7,800 nucleotides of DNA, from the IMG/VR virus record IMGVR_UViG_2671180405_000013; one strand, given 5' to 3'. Each line of letters begins with the position of its first letter. Positions within the stretch are counted from its first letter, which is position 1. Position numbers and translations under genes: made by a program. The notes under the pieces were generated by a model that searched no databases, was not told where the DNA came from, and worked only from the letters and a program-made list of their open reading frames with translations. Shown here piece by piece: positions 1 through 7,126 of the stretch. Source of the stretch: a virus (taxonomy: Duplodnaviria > Heunggongvirae > Uroviricota > Caudoviricetes).

Positions 1-9
1 GTTTCTACA

Positions 10-32
10 ACCCGCCGCCGAGCGGGTTTTTT
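10..32 (+). terminator. Intrinsic terminator, tR'-like (copy 1)
   Basis: GC stem acccgc/gcgggt around loop cgccga, then TTTTTT. Window positions 1-33 match 2225-2257, which lies directly downstream of a PR'-like promoter. Confidence 0.55.
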
Positions 33-152
33 ATGACTGAAATCGCGTCAGTACAGTAAACGCGCTGGTGGCGGTGAATACCTGTCTTTCAGCTTGCTGG
101 CTTTTTCGACAAGAGTTATTGGTGTGTCACGTTAACCGGAAAAGGAAAAGAC

Positions 153-500: not shown

Positions 501-1559
501 ATGCTTAATGCTGTAAAAATATCCAGTTGTGAGTTAATCAACGCCGACTGCCTGGAATTTATCCGGTCGTTACCCGAAAATTCTGTTGACCTGATAGTCA
601 CGGACCCGCCGTACTTTAAAGTGAAGCCTGAGGGCTGGGATAACCAGTGGAAGGGCGACGATGATTACCTGAAGTGGCTGGACCAGTGTCTGGCGCAGTT
701 CTGGCGGGTGCTGAAACCTGCCGGAAGTCTTTACCTGTTCTGTGGTCATCGCCTGGCATCTGATATCGAAATCATGATGCGTGAACGCTTCAGTGTGCTG
801 AACCATATTATCTGGGCGAAGCCGTCCGGACGCTGGAACGGATGCAACAAGGAAAGCCTGCGGGCGTATTTCCCCGCCACAGAGCGCATTCTGTTCGCGG
901 AACATTATCAGGGGCCGTATCGTCCGAAAGATGCCGGGTATGCGGCGAAGGGCAGTGCACTGAAACAGCATGTGATGGCCCCGCTGATTTCTTACTTTCG
1001 TGATGCGCGAGCTGCCCTGGGGATAACGGCAAAACAGATTGCAGATGCCACAGGAAAGAAAAACATGGTGTCGCACTGGTTCAGTGCCGGTCAGTGGCAG
1101 TTGCCGAATGAAAGCGATTATCTGAAATTACAGGCGCTGTTTGCCCGGGTGGCAGAAGAGAAGCATCGGCGTGGTGAACTGGAAAAGCTCCACCACCAGC
1201 TGGTGGATACGTATACCTCACTGAACCGGCAGTATGCGGAGCTGCTGAGTGAATATAAACATCTGCGGCGGTATTTTGGCGTGACGGTGCAGGTGCCGTA
1301 TACCGATGTGTGGACGCATAAACCGGTGCAGTTCTATCCCGGGAAACATCCGTGCGAAAAACCGGCAGAAATGCTGCAGCAGATAATCAGCGCTAGCAGT
1401 CGTCCGGGTGACCTGATTGCAGATTTTTTCATGGGGTTGGGTTCGACAGTGAAAGCGGCACTGGCGCTCGGGCGTCGTGCAATTGGCGTTGAGCTGGAGA
1501 CTGAACGTTTTGAGCAGACGGTTCGGGAAGTACAGGATTTAGTCAGCCAGAACGGATGA
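501..1559 (+). CDS. DNA methyltransferase, beta-class amino-MTase (N6-adenine or N4-cytosine), orphan
   Basis: 352-aa ORF with motif IV DPPY near the N-terminus (LIVTDPPYF) and motif I FxGxG near the C-terminus (DFFMGLGST), the beta-class order. No restriction endonuclease gene is adjacent in the window. Confidence 0.85.
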   Translation: MLNAVKISSCELINADCLEFIRSLPENSVDLIVTDPPYFKVKPEGWDNQWKGDDDYLKWLDQCLAQFWRVLKPAGSLYLFCGHRLASDIEIMMRERFSVLNHIIWAKPSGRWNGCNKESLRAYFPATERILFAEHYQGPYRPKDAGYAAKGSALKQHVMAPLISYFRDARAALGITAKQIADATGKKNMVSHWFSAGQWQLPNESDYLKLQALFARVAEEKHRRGELEKLHHQLVDTYTSLNRQYAELLSEYKHLRRYFGVTVQVPYTDVWTHKPVQFYPGKHPCEKPAEMLQQIISASSRPGDLIADFFMGLGSTVKAALALGRRAIGVELETERFEQTVREVQDLVSQNG

Positions 1560-2659: not shown

Positions 2660-3013
2660 TTGATTGAGTGTTTGTTATACGGTCTAATGGTTTTTTCAGC
2701 ATTAAATATTTATCATTCATATGGTGTGGGTAGAGTGAATATTGATGAGGCGTCGGGGTGTTTCATCCTTAGGCAGCGTATTGATATAGTCAATGCAGCA
2801 CGAGCAAAGGCCTTCAGCCGTTTGACAGTTTTGTTCTGTACTCCTGATCGTCTTTCGGGAAGAGACGTTATTATTCTGAATAGTGATGCTATACAGAGGG
2901 TTTGCGATGAGTTCATGGTTGCTAATTCAGAATTATTTGCTCTTGTTCAGGAGTACAACAGAATAGCCAGGACCTGTGGTATGGATGAACTTCGGATTAC
3001 TCATCTGGGGTAG
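2660..3013 (+). CDS. Hypothetical protein, start uncertain (TTG 2660, ATG 2687 or GTG 2735)
   Basis: 354-nt ORF downstream of the second tRNA cluster. No convincing Shine-Dalgarno before any candidate start and no family recognised from the translation. Confidence 0.35.
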   Translation: MIECLLYGLMVFSALNIYHSYGVGRVNIDEASGCFILRQRIDIVNAARAKAFSRLTVLFCTPDRLSGRDVIILNSDAIQRVCDEFMVANSELFALVQEYNRIARTCGMDELRITHLG

Positions 3014-3204: not shown

Positions 3205-3428
3205 TTTTTAAATACTTCACAATTCAGGCGGTTGACTGTTGTCTGGTTTGCGGGGAGTTTGTTAAAAGAAACTGGCATGGTGAATCCCCCTGTGCGGAGG
3301 GGCAATCAGCGAGTAGGTATATGGGATAATCGCGGATTCAGGTGCTGGTACTGAATTCACCGGGAGGCACCCGGCACCATGCAATGGCACATAGCGCCAC
3401 TCTCCAGCCCCTCTCCGGAGGGGCTGTT
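3205..3428 (+). repeat. Repeat family X, copy B
   Basis: Same element as copy A with point differences: TTGACT box, closing helix caccatg (perfect pairing), terminator stem gcccctc/gaggggc 7 bp with loop tccg. Confidence 0.7.
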
Positions 3429-3457
3429 TATATTGATTTTGTCAGATGTGAGTAAAC

Positions 3458-3491
3458 TCCTTATGGACTTTGTTGTTTTAGTCCATAAGGA
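3458..3491. repeat. Perfect 11-bp inverted repeat at the left edge of the AT-rich island
   Basis: tccttatggac (3458-3468), 12-nt loop, gtccataagga (3481-3491). It overlaps the last codons of the minus-strand ORF and has no T-tract on either side. Confidence 0.6.
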
Positions 3492-3796
3492 CATATTTGC
3501 AGAGTGCAACGGTTATTAAAGCATTCATTCAATACGTTATCTGTATTTGTAGGGCATTCCTGGCTATTTTTGATTGAATTCCAGAATGTTTTATTGAATG
3601 GTACTACGTTGTAAATGGTTACAGGTAGCACTTTGTTATTGAGCATGATGCCTGTGTGAGTCAGTGTAAATATACTTTCAGGAGGTAAGAAAGCATCCGA
3701 TTGATACCAGATTATTAATTTTATTTTACTCCATATGACTGAAAAAGATATTCCGCATGATGGCTGGATAACTGTATCAATCACAATCCACTTCAT
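3461..3796 (-). CDS. Hypothetical Cys/Trp/Asn-rich protein, 111 aa, island cargo
   Basis: ATG at 3796-3794 preceded by AAGGA with a 6-nt spacer. A 111-codon open frame in very AT-rich DNA is unlikely by chance. Candidate promoter on the minus strand: -10 TATACT (plus 3837-3842), -35 TTTACA (plus 3858-3863), 15-bp spacer. Confidence 0.5.
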
Positions 3797-4056
3797 TTAG
3801 TTTCCTTGTTTATGCCTTGCTGGTGATGTTCTGAAAAGTATAAATGATATTTTTGAATGTAAACCATAGAGCAGAATTATTTTTCTGATGTTGTTTATTG
3901 TTTATTTAAATGCAGGGTGGTTTATATCTCGTCTTGTAGTTTATCCATGCATATCTGCTTGATAATCAGGTTTTTATTTAAGGTATGGTTTTGTGTTTTT
4001 TCTGTATTACATGTCAGGTATTTTAAAGAATTATTTTTCAGATGGTGGAAAGAACC

Positions 4057-4083
4057 ATGGCATTTAAACACTATGATGTTGTC
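4057..4083 (+). CDS. 5' fragment of a second nanS-p-like gene, truncated by the N gap
   Basis: atggcatttaaacactatgatgttgtc encodes MAFKHYDVV, identical in protein to the start of the 5123 ORF, with two synonymous differences and a different AT-rich upstream region. Confidence 0.5.
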
Positions 4084-4214
4084 NNNNNNNNNNNNNNNNN
4101 NNNNNNNNNNNNNNNNNNNNNNNNNNNNNNNNNNNNNNNNNNNNNNNNNNNNNNNNNNNNNNNNNNNNNNNNNNNNNNNNNNNNNNNNNNNNNNNNNNNN
4201 NNNNNNNNNNNNNN
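4084..4214. other. Assembly gap (131 N)
   Basis: Uninterrupted run of n. Confidence 1.
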
Positions 4215-4450
4215 AGTTGTCTGTTTTGCGGGGAGTTTGTTAAAAGAAACTGGCATGGTGAATCCCCCTGTGCGGAGGGGCAATCAGCGAGTAGGTATAT
4301 GGGATAATCGCGGATTCAGGTGCTGGTACTGAATTCACCGGGAGGCACCCGGCATCATGCAATGGCACATAGCGCCACTCTCCAGCCCTCTCCGGAGGGG
4401 CTTTTCTGTGCCGGATACATCACAGTTTCTGGAACCTTAGGTACTACAGT
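4215..4450 (+). repeat. Repeat family X, copy C (5' end lost in the gap)
   Basis: Identical to 1917-2152. Confidence 0.75.
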
Positions 4451-4596
4451 ATCAGTCAGGGTGCTATATTTTCAGATGTGATGAAAGCCTGTCAGCAGGC
4501 AGGGCGTATCGGAAATGACCCAGTAGAGAAAACGTTGACTCAGATACCGGTGCTGAGTTACCGGGAAACCGGCATCACATGACCGCTATCCTTCCA

Positions 4597-4623
4597 GGCC
4601 CATCCGCTCCGGTGGGCCTTTTT
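4597..4623 (+). terminator. Intrinsic terminator closing a partial X-like unit (4535-4623)
   Basis: Stem ggcccatc/gg(t)gggcc of 8 bp including one U-G pair, loop cgctcc, then TTTTT. The preceding ggtgctgagttaccgggaaaccggcatca aligns with the hairpin region of repeat X. Confidence 0.55.
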
Positions 4624-4660
4624 ACTGCAGAAAACAGGTTCCCCGTTAAATGCTATGTTG

Positions 4661-4895
4661 CTCACAATTCAGTAAGTTGACAGTTGCCTGTCAGACTGGG
4701 CATTTGTTAAAAAAATTTCGCATGGTGAATCCCCCTGAGCGGAGGGGCGACTGGTGACGGTATAATCTCTGATTATCAAAACGAGAATGACGCGGGTTTA
4801 GTGGCACCGGGCTGAACTCACCGGGAGGCACCCGGCACCATGTGCATGATGATACAGATACGCGGCTTTAGCCCCTCTCCGGAGGGGTTTTCTTG
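4661..4895 (+). repeat. Repeat family X, copy D (divergent), ending about 230 nt upstream of nanS-p
   Basis: Retains TCACAATTCAG, the TTGACA box, closing helix catggtg (4721-4727) / caccatg, hairpin ccgggaggcacccgg and terminator cccctc/gagggg + TTTTCTT (4871-4895); sequence between the helices has diverged. Confidence 0.65.
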
Positions 4896-4900
4896 TGGGC

Positions 4901-4929
4901 AAAAAAAGCCCGCGCTGGGAGACGCGGGC
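4901..4929 (-). terminator. Intrinsic terminator readable on the minus strand
   Basis: On the minus strand, stem gcccgcg/cgcgggc (7 bp) with loop tctcccag is followed by TTTTTTT (plus-strand A7 at 4901-4907). Confidence 0.4.
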
Positions 4930-5122
4930 GGCAAGGAATAAACAATAAAACGTGAAGTAATATTTCAGCTGGCGAATAATACCCCATAGTAATCACTCTG
5001 CGCAACTGCGCGGTCTTTTTCGAATTGCGGGCTGTCGTCTCTCTTCTGCCATTGTCCTGTAACTTCCGGACTTCAGCCCGCTCCTTATTTTACTCACAAT
5101 ATTATCCCGGCCGGGAGGATTC

Positions 5123-6976
5123 ATGGCATTTAAACACTATGACGTGGTCAGGGCGGCATCGCCGTCAGACCTTGCGAAACGACTGACACAAAAACTGAAG
5201 GAGGGCTGGCAGCCGTTTGGTAGTCCGGTGGCCATAACCCCTTATACCCTGATGCAGGCGATTGCAGCAGAAGGTGATGTGGTCGTCAGTGGTGCAACTG
5301 AGCCGGAGTGGTACTACGTCATCGTACTGGCCGGGCAATCCAATGCCATGGCTTACGGTGAAGGTCTTCCGCTTCCGGATTCATACGATGCGCCCCATCC
5401 GCGCATTAAGCAACTGGCCCGTCGTAACACAGTGACTCCCGGTGGTGAAGTATGCGTATTTAACGACATCATTCCTGCTGACCATTGTCTGCATGATGTT
5501 CAGGATATGAGTACGATTAACCATCCCCGGGCTGACCTGAGCAAAGGGCAGTACGGCTGTGTCGGACAGGGCTTACATATTGCCAAAAAACTGCTTCCGT
5601 ATATCCCTAATAATGCGGGGATCCTGCTGGTACCATGCTGTTGTGGTGGTTCGGCATTCACCCAGGGCACGGAGGGGACATTCAGCGAGTCCACGGGGGC
5701 CAGTCAGGATTCGGCTCGCTGGGGAGTGGGTAAGCCGTTATATCAGGATCTGCTTTTCCGCACGAAGGCAGCATTGCAGAAAAACCCGAAAAACGTTTTG
5801 CTGGCGATATGCTGGATGCAGGGGGAATTCGATATGACGAATGCCAGTTACGCCCAGCAGCCAGCAGCATTTCTTGCAATGGTACAGCAGTTCCGTGCTG
5901 ACCTTGCCGGGCTGGCGGCGCAGTGTCACGGTGGAAGTCCGGCATCAGTCCCCTGGATTTGTGGCGACACGACATACGCGTGGAAACAAGAACACGGTAC
6001 GCAATATGAAGTGGTATATGGTGCATATAAAGGTAAAGAATCCCAGCAGATTTATTTTGTTCCCTTTATGACCGATGGTAGCGGAGTTAATACACCGACA
6101 AACAACCCGTCAGAAGATCCTGATATTGCCGGGTCTGGTTATTACGGTTCGGCATCCCGAACGAACAAAAACTGGGTATCATCAAATCGCCCGACGCATT
6201 TCAGCTCATGGGCGCGTCGTGGCATTATTCCCGATCGTATGGCAACTGCTATTCTGAACGTAGCCGGTCGCACCTTAGCCTTCATTAGTGGTAAGGCACC
6301 GGAAATCAAACCCTCGCCCGGCGGCGACACGCCATCGGGGCCGTCTGAAGATGCATCCATACGCACAATCTCCCTGTTGCCGACAGCCGGAGACGCTGCT
6401 GCGCAGGGCTGGAGCATTAAGAATGGCGGAGTTCAGTTGTCAGATGGTGTATTTAAGATCACCAAGCAGAGCAATAAAGCCTGGTCCCTGACGCGCCCGG
6501 TGGATGACGCAGTCTCCCTGCTGACACGGGGTGGCAGACTGAGCTGTAAGTTTCGACTGTCAGGCGCACTGACCAACAACCAGTTCGGTCTGGGAATTTA
6601 TCTGTATACCGATGTAGCGTTACCTGACGTCGTGGCGATGACCGGGACTGGTAACCCGTTCCTGATGTCGTTCTTCACCCAGACCACAGACGGCAAACTG
6701 AATCTGATGCATCACAAGAAAGCAGGAAACACAAAGTTGGGCGAGTTCGGGAATTACAGTAACGACTGGCTGACGCTGGAGCTGGTGTTCACCGCCGGCA
6801 GTGCCACGGTTACTCCGAAACTGAATGGAGTGGCTGGCCCGGCATTCCAGGTCATAAAAGACAGTCTGACACTGGGGCTGAATGCGCTGACGCTGACGGA
6901 TATTACCAAAAATGCAGCGTATGGCGTTGAGATAGAAAGTCTGGTGCTGGAGATAAATGCACCGGCATCATCATAA
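5123..6976 (+). CDS. nanS: Prophage sialate O-acetylesterase, NanS-p type (N-terminal DUF1737-like segment plus SGNH/SASA esterase domain)
   Basis: 617-aa ORF with strong Shine-Dalgarno GGGAGGA 5 nt upstream of the ATG. N-terminus MAFKHYDVV and the GQSN esterase motif (VLAGQSNAMAYGEG) match the 9-O-acetyl-sialate esterases found downstream of stx in EHEC prophages. Confidence 0.8.
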   Translation: MAFKHYDVVRAASPSDLAKRLTQKLKEGWQPFGSPVAITPYTLMQAIAAEGDVVVSGATEPEWYYVIVLAGQSNAMAYGEGLPLPDSYDAPHPRIKQLARRNTVTPGGEVCVFNDIIPADHCLHDVQDMSTINHPRADLSKGQYGCVGQGLHIAKKLLPYIPNNAGILLVPCCCGGSAFTQGTEGTFSESTGASQDSARWGVGKPLYQDLLFRTKAALQKNPKNVLLAICWMQGEFDMTNASYAQQPAAFLAMVQQFRADLAGLAAQCHGGSPASVPWICGDTTYAWKQEHGTQYEVVYGAYKGKESQQIYFVPFMTDGSGVNTPTNNPSEDPDIAGSGYYGSASRTNKNWVSSNRPTHFSSWARRGIIPDRMATAILNVAGRTLAFISGKAPEIKPSPGGDTPSGPSEDASIRTISLLPTAGDAAAQGWSIKNGGVQLSDGVFKITKQSNKAWSLTRPVDDAVSLLTRGGRLSCKFRLSGALTNNQFGLGIYLYTDVALPDVVAMTGTGNPFLMSFFTQTTDGKLNLMHHKKAGNTKLGEFGNYSNDWLTLELVFTAGSATVTPKLNGVAGPAFQVIKDSLTLGLNALTLTDITKNAAYGVEIESLVLEINAPASS

Positions 6977-7061
6977 AAAGTGAGCCAGCCAAATGGAAGG
7001 TATCGTTAAACTCACCGGTAGTGTCAGTGGGTCGTCTGAGATGCCTGCATGAGTTATCAGA

Positions 7062-7091
7062 GCCATCAGTACTTAACTGGTGGCTTTTTTT
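7062..7091 (+). terminator. Intrinsic terminator between nanS-p and the holin
   Basis: Stem gccatcag/ctggtggc (8 bp, one U-G pair), loop tacttaa, followed by TTTTTTT. Confidence 0.6.
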
Positions 7092-7126
7092 ATTGTTGTC
7101 AGCTTCCGGATAACGGGAGACGGGGT

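Follow-up and report, generated by a model that had tools for sequence, protein, structure and literature searches.

The window analysed here, a stretch of 7,800 nucleotides (nt) from IMG/VR virus record IMGVR_UViG_2671180405_000013 (Caudoviricetes), belongs to a lambdoid prophage and forms a mosaic late region. The element in question lies at about 4535–5122, directly before nanS-p, which is the first late gene downstream in the list of open reading frames (ORFs). In an initial annotation it was described as two tandem small RNA (sRNA)-like units, a 'partial X' (pX) and a divergent unit D, at the place where prophages of enterohaemorrhagic Escherichia coli (EHEC) carry the anti-sRNAs AgvB and AsxR. 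The interval holds three sRNA genes of already described prophage families, and the feature is real and largely ordinary: D is of the STnc100/EcOnc27 type, a convergent RNA is of the EcOnc08 type, and pX is an unannotated divergent relative. The convergent gene is located on the minus strand inside the same interval and had been overlooked. Features are listed in Table 1.

RNA genes upstream of nanS-p

Tandem, terminator-ended RNA units before nanS-p were recovered by a repeat finder, by alignment and by a terminator scan. Repeat finder and alignment placed X units at 1896–2152, 3216–3435 and 4215–4450, D at 4661–4897 and a diverged unit at ~4452–4625; 7 terminator-like sites were found in 4400–5200 (0.8 expected). 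The linkers of the three tandem units X3, pX and D were unrelated in sequence when aligned. Similarity to known prophage sRNAs, on which the initial annotation had made its reading depend, was found to the STnc100 and EcOnc08-type families, and the ORF list holds no coding sequence (CDS) upstream of pX or D whose 3′ untranslated region (UTR) the units could be.

Units were scored against the Rfam model of STnc100 (RF02076, gathering threshold 47 bits). X copies reached 123.6–132.4 bits, the lowest value being that of X3 (match at 4224–4413), and D reached 161 bits (E 4e-37) over model positions 1–206, which is the full model. pX scored 30.1 bits, under the threshold (E 0.0013 for the window and 3.4e-5 for 201 nt). 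D was 84.5% identical to EcOnc27 of the Sakai prophage Sp5 and ~90% identical to many copies from Shiga toxin (Stx) 2a phages. By its sequence, D belongs to the canonical Rfam STnc100 RNAs and is of EcOnc27/sRNA103 type.

With the invariant 19-mer CACCGGGAGGCACCCGGCA, copies of the family were collected in other genera, which gave at least 120 loci (Kosakonia, Enterobacter, Pantoea, Klebsiella, Erwinia, Rahnella, Salmonella and others). From 42 non-redundant cores of these genera a covariance model, R1, was built and searched with filters off. Of the 26 pairs in the consensus structure of the 42 copies, 11 showed compensatory changes; the structure was multibranched, with a closing helix around hairpin 1, a junction helix and hairpins 3 and 4. 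R1 detected five cores in the window: four canonical ones at 83–88 bits (X3 83.2, D 87.6) and pX at 28.4 bits (E 2.2e-6, 4472–4583, model positions 1–120 of 120), the next match having 11 bits. A sequence-only profile of the same copies (nhmmer) found the four canonical cores and missed pX, which is thus detectable only with structure-aware models.

The single-sequence minimum free energy (MFE) fold of pX had the family architecture (z = −2.58). Its closing helix was AUGUGAUG/CAUCACAU where the family has CAUGGUG/CACCAUG, its hairpin 1 was GCCUG/CAGGC where the family has CCCCC/GGGGG, both changes being compensatory, and its hairpin 4 was CCGG-GAAA-CCGG. The word 'partial' did not hold for this unit: the whole family core is present, and just the 60-nt E. 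coli-specific 5′ extension is missing. On covariance model and predicted fold, pX is no truncated remnant but a complete short-form member of the STnc100/PasD superfamily, if a divergent one. Being below the Rfam threshold, it was filed as a superfamily relative like PasD2 and not as a curated STnc100 member.

PasD1 and PasD2 are Hfq-dependent sRNAs of enteropathogenic E. coli (EPEC), 172–173 nt long and homologous to EHEC EcOnc13; their coordinates, seed and Hfq-mediated chimeras with many mRNAs were published by Pearl Mizrahi 2021. For PasD1/2 and STnc100 a common ancestor is described by Zhu, Shabalina and Storz 2026 (preprint), where pasD is also reported to lie often directly upstream of a sialate esterase gene. 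Like pX, PasD1 and PasD2 have the short form starting at the closing helix and lie on the plus strand upstream of a sialate esterase gene, and PasD2 likewise combines a sub-threshold STnc100 score (41.4 bits) with a significant structural match. pX and PasD share no sequence identity and have different linkers, so that any targets would differ. The PasD probe/seed region CCTTGTGAGTTCTGGCTGCGCATG gave 0 matches in the window at up to 3 mismatches, and this absence of the probe and seed (UGUGAG) region ruled out PasD identity for the units of the window.

Across 78 copies of other genera, +1 is set 1–3 nt before UGGUGAAUCC by a promoter of the form TTGACn-17-TAnnnT. Promoter-like elements stand at the family position in pX (TGCTATATT) and D (TGTTAAAAA, P2), with TGCTATGTT (P1) further upstream of D; the starts are predicted. 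P1 would give a long form of D, and most of the E. coli-type copies examined have a −10-like hexamer 6–7 nt 5′ of the A in CACAAUUC. P2 occupies the position of the PasD2 promoter, the 5′ end of whose product was set by RNA-seq coverage (GCAUGGUGAAUCC); the short form started from it is predicted at ~175 nt, which fits the 177-nt EcOnc06. Since D keeps both candidates, two forms of ~230–235 nt and ~175 nt are plausible.

EcOnc27, which a review equates with sRNA103 of strain EDL933 (PMC7873438), lies downstream of stx2B in Sp5/933W. In Sakai Sp5, the STnc100 match (208 bits) is directly 3′ of stx2B and is followed by AsxR on the opposite strand (88.1 bits). D shares with EcOnc27/sRNA103 the 5′ extension CUCACAAUUCAG...UUGACAG, the core, the terminator architecture and the position immediately upstream of a convergent sRNA and nanS-p. 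It differs in that the prophage of the window carries no stx and pX precedes D where stx2B stands, in the sequence of the linker between core and terminator (the candidate seed), and in a convergent partner that is not AsxR. A pairing of D hairpin 1 with the terminator, seen in one MFE fold, was rejected as a folding artefact for want of conservation in pX and PasD.

Single-nucleotide polymorphisms (SNPs) in the EcOnc27-type RNA were among the strongest genomic predictors of haemolytic uraemic syndrome (HUS) in a 2025 study (PMC12711010). The variants reported there downstream of stx2B (T/C SNP at +90, T deletion at +103) fall in or next to the EcOnc27 extended −10/discriminator (TTTGTTAAAAAAATTTCG), at 4437–4451 of the Sp5 locus (L004), which corresponds to ~4704–4718 of the window; this placement is by our own counting, with a numbering offset uncertain by 1–2 nt.

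The convergent minus-strand RNA was 97% identical (mean column identity, alignment) or 94.6–95% identical (BLAST) to the EPEC PP6 and Sakai Sp4 loci. The EPEC RNA E2348C_1409.E2348C_1408.IGR (182 nt), stated to be homologous to EcOnc08/21/42 (Pearl Mizrahi 2021), maps to window 4901–5082. Homology extends over the whole 182-nt RNA and includes the terminator and the CCUUGCC seed; the fold had z = −2.2. EcOnc08/21/42 and the RNA of the window are just a few substitutions apart and have in common the terminator, the seed next to it and the position antisense to the nanS-p leader. By sequence, therefore, this is a known EcOnc08-type sRNA, present in the window as a predicted gene. Hfq peaks EcOnc08 and EcOnc21 are listed for Sakai Sp4 by Tree 2014 (PMC4104026). 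For the EPEC RNA, partners obtained by ligation and sequencing of interacting RNAs (RIL-seq) include the 5′ UTRs of cfa (767 chimeras) and dppA (197), and its target motif GGCA(A/G)GG complements CCUUGCC (Pearl Mizrahi 2021). An OmrA-B match at 4901–4989 on the minus strand (25 bits, threshold 40) was dismissed, since the similarity is mainly in the terminator and the element is of EcOnc08 type.

Table 1. Positions of the RNA units, signals and genes of the window, with array coordinates in three further loci.
Feature	Position	Strand	Remarks
tR′ terminator end	1–35		first PR′–tR′ copy
Small ORF	between tR′ end and methylase gene		
DNA methylase gene	501–1559		PF01555
Three tRNAs	3′ of methylase gene, before repeated RNA units		
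X3	4215–4450	+	STnc100-type, first unit of tandem array; 5′ end masked by N-run; core 4249–4363
pX promoter (predicted, extended −10), TGCTATATT	4462–4470	+	family promoter position; predicted +1 ~G4478
pX ('partial X')	4478–4625	+	closing helix GUGAUG (4478–83)/CAUCAC (4573–78), three internal hairpins
pX linker	4579–4595	+	17 nt, single-stranded
pX terminator	4596–4619	+	U-tract follows
Candidate promoter P1 (extended −10), TGCTATGTT	4651–4659	+	sequence reading; long form of D ~230–235 nt
D	4661–4897	+	Rfam match 4691–4900; core 4716–4846; linker 4843–4869
5′ motif, CTCACAATTCAG	4661–4672	+	start of 60-nt 5′ extension; small hairpin follows, 4677–4694
Candidate promoter P2 (extended −10), TGTTAAAAA	4705–4713	+	family-standard; predicted +1 ~4721
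D terminator	4870–4889	+	UUCUUGU follows
Convergent Hfq-type sRNA (EcOnc08/21/42 type)	4901–~5093	−	antisense to nanS-p leader
Convergent sRNA terminator	4929–4908	−	U7 follows
Convergent sRNA seed, CCUUGCC	4936–4930	−	
Convergent sRNA promoter (sigma-70-like)	−10 5106–5101; −35 5129–5124	−	GATAAT; ATGCCA; predicted start ~5093
Terminator-like hairpin, CTGCGCAACTGCGCGG, then TCTTTTTCG (also given as UCUUUUUCG)	4998–5013	+	nanS-p leader
nanS-p	5123–6976	+	617-aa sialate O-acetylesterase; DUF1737, SASA, DUF6645; Pfam PF08410, PF03629, PF20350
P21-type holin gene, then DUF1327 protein gene	3′ of nanS-p		
Pantoea concatenated arrays (other loci)	L083 6359–7021; L099 4135–4758; L052 947–1992	−	

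The 5′ motif and the relation to AgvB and AsxR

For the anti-sRNA reading of the initial annotation, the presence of sRNA genes and the locus proved right, and identity with AgvB or AsxR proved wrong. Covariance models RF02702 (AgvB) and RF02703 (AsxR) gave no match at E ≤ 1 over the window or at E ≤ 10 over 4880–5130, and the conserved ~42-nt 3′ core of the two RNAs (AGUAUCUCAUGC..UUGCCCGAACCCAYUCGGGC) gave 0 matches in the window at up to 3 mismatches. As positive control, RF02703 was run on Sakai Sp5 and recovered AsxR at the 88.1 bits given above. With neither a model nor a core match and a control that worked, this identity was rejected for the plus-strand units, which correspond instead to EcOnc27/EcOnc05 within STnc100 and are related to PasD. 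AgvB and AsxR are 51–60 nt long and lie on the opposite strand, whereas the units flagged earlier are on the plus strand and 147–235 nt long; these are partners of AgvB/AsxR-type anti-sRNAs and not the anti-sRNAs themselves. The comparison with AsxR (RF02703) and AgvB (RF02702) applies to the convergent RNA, which has the same slot and is likewise a short Hfq-binding type RNA opposite to late transcription and convergent with an STnc100-type gene, except that here the slot is filled by a ~180–190-nt RNA of another family. It occupies the AsxR position of Sp5, where AsxR replaces the 3′ part of the convergent gene and the remaining leader is shared; in Sp10 and Sp17, AgvB stands at the slot. 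Convergent Hfq-binding sRNA pairs were described for eight Sakai prophages, in the stretch from the moron site downstream of PR′ to a conserved nanS-p-type ORF (Tree 2014, PMC4104026).

The motif at the start of the 5′ extension, proposed earlier as seed or mimic, was conserved in the X, D, Sp4, Sp5, Stx2a-phage and phi296 copies. As CACAATTCAG it was confined to copies of E. coli/Shigella phage type (10 of 85 with a recognisable core) and missing in the other 75. Prediction left its first 8 nt unpaired in D, and to a lesser degree in other copies. Hfq peaks from crosslinking and analysis of cDNAs (CRAC) and northern sizes were taken from Table S2 of Tree 2014 (PMC4104026). The extension is present in EcOnc05 (northern ~222 nt) and EcOnc27 (~235/247 nt) and absent from EcOnc06, the AgvB partner of Sp10/Sp17 (~177 nt), and from PasD2 (172 nt). 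Because the sizes of these orthologues track the extension, it is very probably transcribed, and the long RNA form probably has the motif CUCACAAUUCAG at its 5′ end or close to it; the unit boundary set there earlier agrees with the published sizes with and without extension.

Pairing of the motif with core sRNAs, suggested earlier for GcvB and FnrS, was analysed with RNAduplex against 300 shuffles each in 24 comparisons, intramolecular structure being ignored, and was no better than that of shuffled sequence. The 12-mer gave −7.9 kcal/mol with GcvB (46% of shuffles equal or better), −5.4 kcal/mol with FnrS (77%) and −8.6 kcal/mol with PasD2 (31%); the control, the AgvB 5′ end with GcvB, stood out at −17.1 kcal/mol (3%). 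The 5′ 30-mer of D formed an imperfect 13-bp duplex with GcvB nt 57–69 (−22.5 kcal/mol, 3%), which is lost in the X copy and altered in Sp5-type copies, where GUCAG replaces GUAAG at the paired bases; the pX linker also reached 3% with PasD2. As 24 comparisons were made, 3% of shuffles is not significant. A role of the 5′ motif as seed or mimic is unsupported and is not favoured, with a low probability left to it in the long form. In the relatives, the hypervariable 3′ linker by the terminator holds the PasD seed, the coordinates of the PasD RIL-seq chimeras and the Hfq peak of EcOnc27.

The related motif noted earlier in the nanS-p leader, ACTCACAAT, was present, at 5092–5100 and not at 5091–5099, and overlaps the start region of the convergent sRNA promoter. 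CTCACAAT occurred 3 times in the window (0.25 expected); two of these copies are in homologous units, so the single independent extra copy is not significant. AAUUCAG of the 5′ motif also has its complement in hairpin 3, whose 3′ arm reads CUGAAUU in X and CUGAACU in D (4666–4672 and 4812–4818 in D; 1901–1907 and 2031–2037 in X1), and the 5′ extension could therefore compete with hairpin 3.

Genomic context of the cluster

The order of the window is methylase gene, tRNAs, RNA units, nanS-p and holin gene; in UTI89, the Q gene is upstream of the corresponding array. As in the STnc100/PasD superfamily at large, the units lie between Q/PR′ and the lysis genes in the orientation of late transcription. 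In eight sampled loci of other genera, units were 3′ of Q (PF03589) and always oriented like the lysis genes, with a holin gene (PF04971, PF16931) or an endolysin gene (PF00959, GH19) downstream. Window 4420–5130 was 100% identical in UTI89, S88, 55989 and many other E. coli genomes, including extraintestinal pathogenic E. coli (ExPEC), and at least 80% of the block was covered in 353 genomes. UTI89 and other complete genomes have the same three cores in the same order X–pX–D, so the N-run at 4084–4214 is not the source of this array. The hairpin at 4998–5013 was kept in the Sp4, Sp5, EPEC and Stx2a-phage leaders and is inside, and antisense to, the convergent sRNA.

The whole window as one piece was found in no complete E. 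coli genome, the best being covered to 87% in 5 pieces. X1 and X3, which share 236 nt at 100% identity (1917–2152 and 4215–4450), stand on either side of a 2.3-kb module, with an N at 2153; the module contains PR′–tR′, tRNAs, ORF 2660–3013, X2, an AT-rich stretch and, at 4047–4083, a 5′ fragment of nanS-p. It arose either by recombination between sRNA copies of different prophages or as an assembly/scaffolding artefact. Its PR′–leader–tR′ segment (2158–2259), the second of the window, has no Q gene, is located between X1 and the second tRNA set and is 89% identical to UTI89 sequence directly after the Q stop codon; it looks like a StxS/6S-type short late transcript. A weak Rfam Trp_leader match at the PR′–tR′ module is probably due to the terminator only. 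The second tRNA set (2297–2549) comprises just tRNA-Met(CAT) and tRNA-Arg(TCT); the middle position, that of tRNA-Arg(TCG) at ~2380–2460, is degenerate and was called by neither ARAGORN nor Rfam. The AT-rich stretch from the second tRNA set to the N-run holds ORFs 2660–3013 (+, 117 aa) and 3461–3796 (−, 111 aa), which gave no match in a Pfam search; in related genomes, an anti-adapter IraM gene is annotated in this neighbourhood. Between nanS-p and the holin gene there is a strong plus-strand hairpin with a U-run (CCATCAGTACTTAACTGGTGGCTTTTTTT, 7060–7095). PasA, which in EPEC lies on the opposite strand of the nanS-p/holin spacer, was absent from the spacer of the window.

Two further candidate explanations of the interval were rejected. 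Small minus-strand ORFs at 4691–4831, 4868–5005 and 4993–5124 overlap structured RNA genes and are without support, such ORFs being called in phage records only via PHANOTATE. An assignment of the units as PR′ promoter, leader and tR′ (6S/StxS-like) was discarded, the PR′–tR′ modules being elsewhere, at 1–35 and 2158–2259; in UTI89 and Enterobacter they sit directly after Q. StxS and lambda 6S, the PR′–tR′ transcripts, are similar as constitutive, short, terminated RNAs of the late region in lysogens that are read through by Q-modified polymerase, whereas the STnc100 units of the window are separate genes further downstream.

Proposed function and competing explanations

What is demonstrated here comprises family membership, covarying secondary structure, intrinsic terminators and a place between Q and the lysis genes that is conserved, as is the orientation. 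With them, the interval is, in identity and general mode, very probably a small-RNA 'dyad' cluster of a lambdoid late operon with three independent RNA genes; we are much less sure of any particular target. Orthologues of the cluster RNAs are transcribed in lysogens, Hfq-bound and partly Hfq-dependent for stability (Tree 2014, Pearl Mizrahi 2021); like PasD, the EcOnc08-type RNA enters into Hfq-mediated chimeras with many mRNAs. EcOnc27 has its Hfq CRAC peak over the 3′ 80 nt and the longer of its two bands is destabilised without hfq (PMC4104026). EDL933 has 11 transcribed STnc100 copies, one of them northern-confirmed. Dyads located between late promoter and lysis genes are reviewed for at least 8 Sakai phages (PMC7873438). 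Overexpression of sRNA103 raises fimZ and espA transcripts (PMC12711010, PMC7873438).

In the proposed working, the cluster, which stands between the PR′/tRNA/moron region and nanS-p with the lysis genes, would express three RNAs: pX (~4478–4625, +), D (4661 or 4721 to ~4897, +) and the convergent RNA (~5093–4901, −), the last in the slot held by AsxR or AgvB in other prophages. Each unit would have its own sigma-70 promoter of extended −10 type and its own terminator, the U-tail of which would bind Hfq. Targets would be chosen by the hypervariable linker 5′ of the terminator in D and pX and by CCUUGCC in the convergent RNA. On induction, Q-modified polymerase from PR′ would pass the three plus-strand terminators, and nanS-p and the lysis genes would be expressed; in the lysogen, constitutive transcription from upstream may also be kept off the lysis genes by the cluster.

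Several points weigh against this account. pX is under the curated threshold of Rfam and its RNA is a prediction; P1 and P2 are consensus-level predictions that the scan tool did not call; and the evidence for expression, Hfq binding and starts comes from orthologues and not from this allele or host. No STnc100-type RNA has a validated direct target, the effect of sRNA103 on espA appears indirect and its link to fimZ is an in silico prediction (PMC7873438). The insulating role is pure inference. Also in poor agreement with a classic seed-type sRNA are the core's internal loops and first 12 nt, which hardly vary, and the concatenated Pantoea cores, which have no terminators of their own.

These last properties belong to a rather doubtful alternative, in which the ~115-nt core is a repeated structured module that would bind a protein, the ribosome, RNA polymerase or a ligand as a decoy, aptamer or scaffold. 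Seed pairing would then be secondary or absent, the variable linker and the E. coli 5′ extension CUCACAAUUCAG would be add-on specificity, and the E. coli X–pX–D array would be the terminator-separated version of arrays that are fused in Pantoea. It is favoured by the exact 19-mer at its many Enterobacterales loci, by the GAAUCC...GGGGC segment and hairpin 4, which are invariant while closing helix and hairpin 3 covary freely, by the 2–6 cores per late region and by the uniform orientation with the lysis genes in all eight sampled loci. In Pantoea, four to six cores stand head to tail, 6–20 nt apart, with one shared terminator, and a predicted transcript of ~660 nt has four cores and ends in just one terminator; all were called STnc100 by Rfam, and their closing helices covary (GGUG/CACC, GGAACG/CGUUCC, UUGCUAUG/CAUAGCAA) with fixed internal loops. 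The reason for the dyad arrangement is moreover called unclear in the literature (PMC7873438). Yet the invariance of hairpin 4 comes partly from the search pattern, hairpins 1 and 4 are different in pX and PasD, which persist nevertheless, RIL-seq shows PasD acting like an ordinary Hfq sRNA, and no candidate partner was identified. CsrA-type GGA motifs in the core were considered and rejected: the GGA of hairpin 1 is not conserved, and its variable A argues against CsrA.

It is unlikely that the units are, or act like, AgvB/AsxR anti-sRNAs, with the 5′ motif sponging GcvB, FnrS or an sRNA with a UUGUGAG seed such as PasD. The locus is the correct one, northern sizes of orthologues put the motif on or close to the 5′ end of the long form, its first 8 nt being predicted unpaired in D, CUCACA is the exact RIL-seq target motif for PasD1/2 (seed UGUGAG), and the duplex of the D 30-mer with GcvB reached the 3% level. 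Set against this are the lack of sequence or covariance-model similarity to AgvB/AsxR, the wrong strand and a length four times too great, energies of the 12-mer with GcvB, FnrS and PasD2 at shuffle level, and the loss or alteration of the GcvB duplex in other copies, its 3% being one among 24 comparisons. The PasD motif has poor MEME E-values (2.4e3 and 6.5), and the 5′ motif is restricted to the E. coli/Shigella type; its conservation may just as well be that of a promoter or initiation region. Less likely again is decay, with the units as duplicates and 3′ UTR-like remnants whose only role is that of terminators or recombination substrates. Three plus-strand terminators within 420 nt upstream of nanS-p, the far-diverged sequence of pX and the identity of X1 and X3 around the 2.3-kb module, which suggests recombination between the copies, are in keeping with it. 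pX, however, keeps every helix by compensatory change together with a promoter-like element at the family position, of which decay is an unlikely source; a CDS upstream of pX or D is lacking, the orthologues are abundant, discrete Hfq-bound RNAs, and the block 4420–5130 is fully identical in the ExPEC genomes listed.

With the dyad cluster as the preferred account, the annotation of the region is corrected: RefSeq leaves the three RNA genes unannotated or under pseudo-ORFs in hundreds of ExPEC genomes, where the units could be mistaken for AgvB/AsxR. Non-Stx prophages of extraintestinal E. coli share the Hfq-sRNA cluster of Stx-phage type. If the core were a structured module, this would explain the existence of the 'dyad' region, and the pX variant and the concatenated arrays are natural sequence variation that bears on the role of the conserved multi-copy core.

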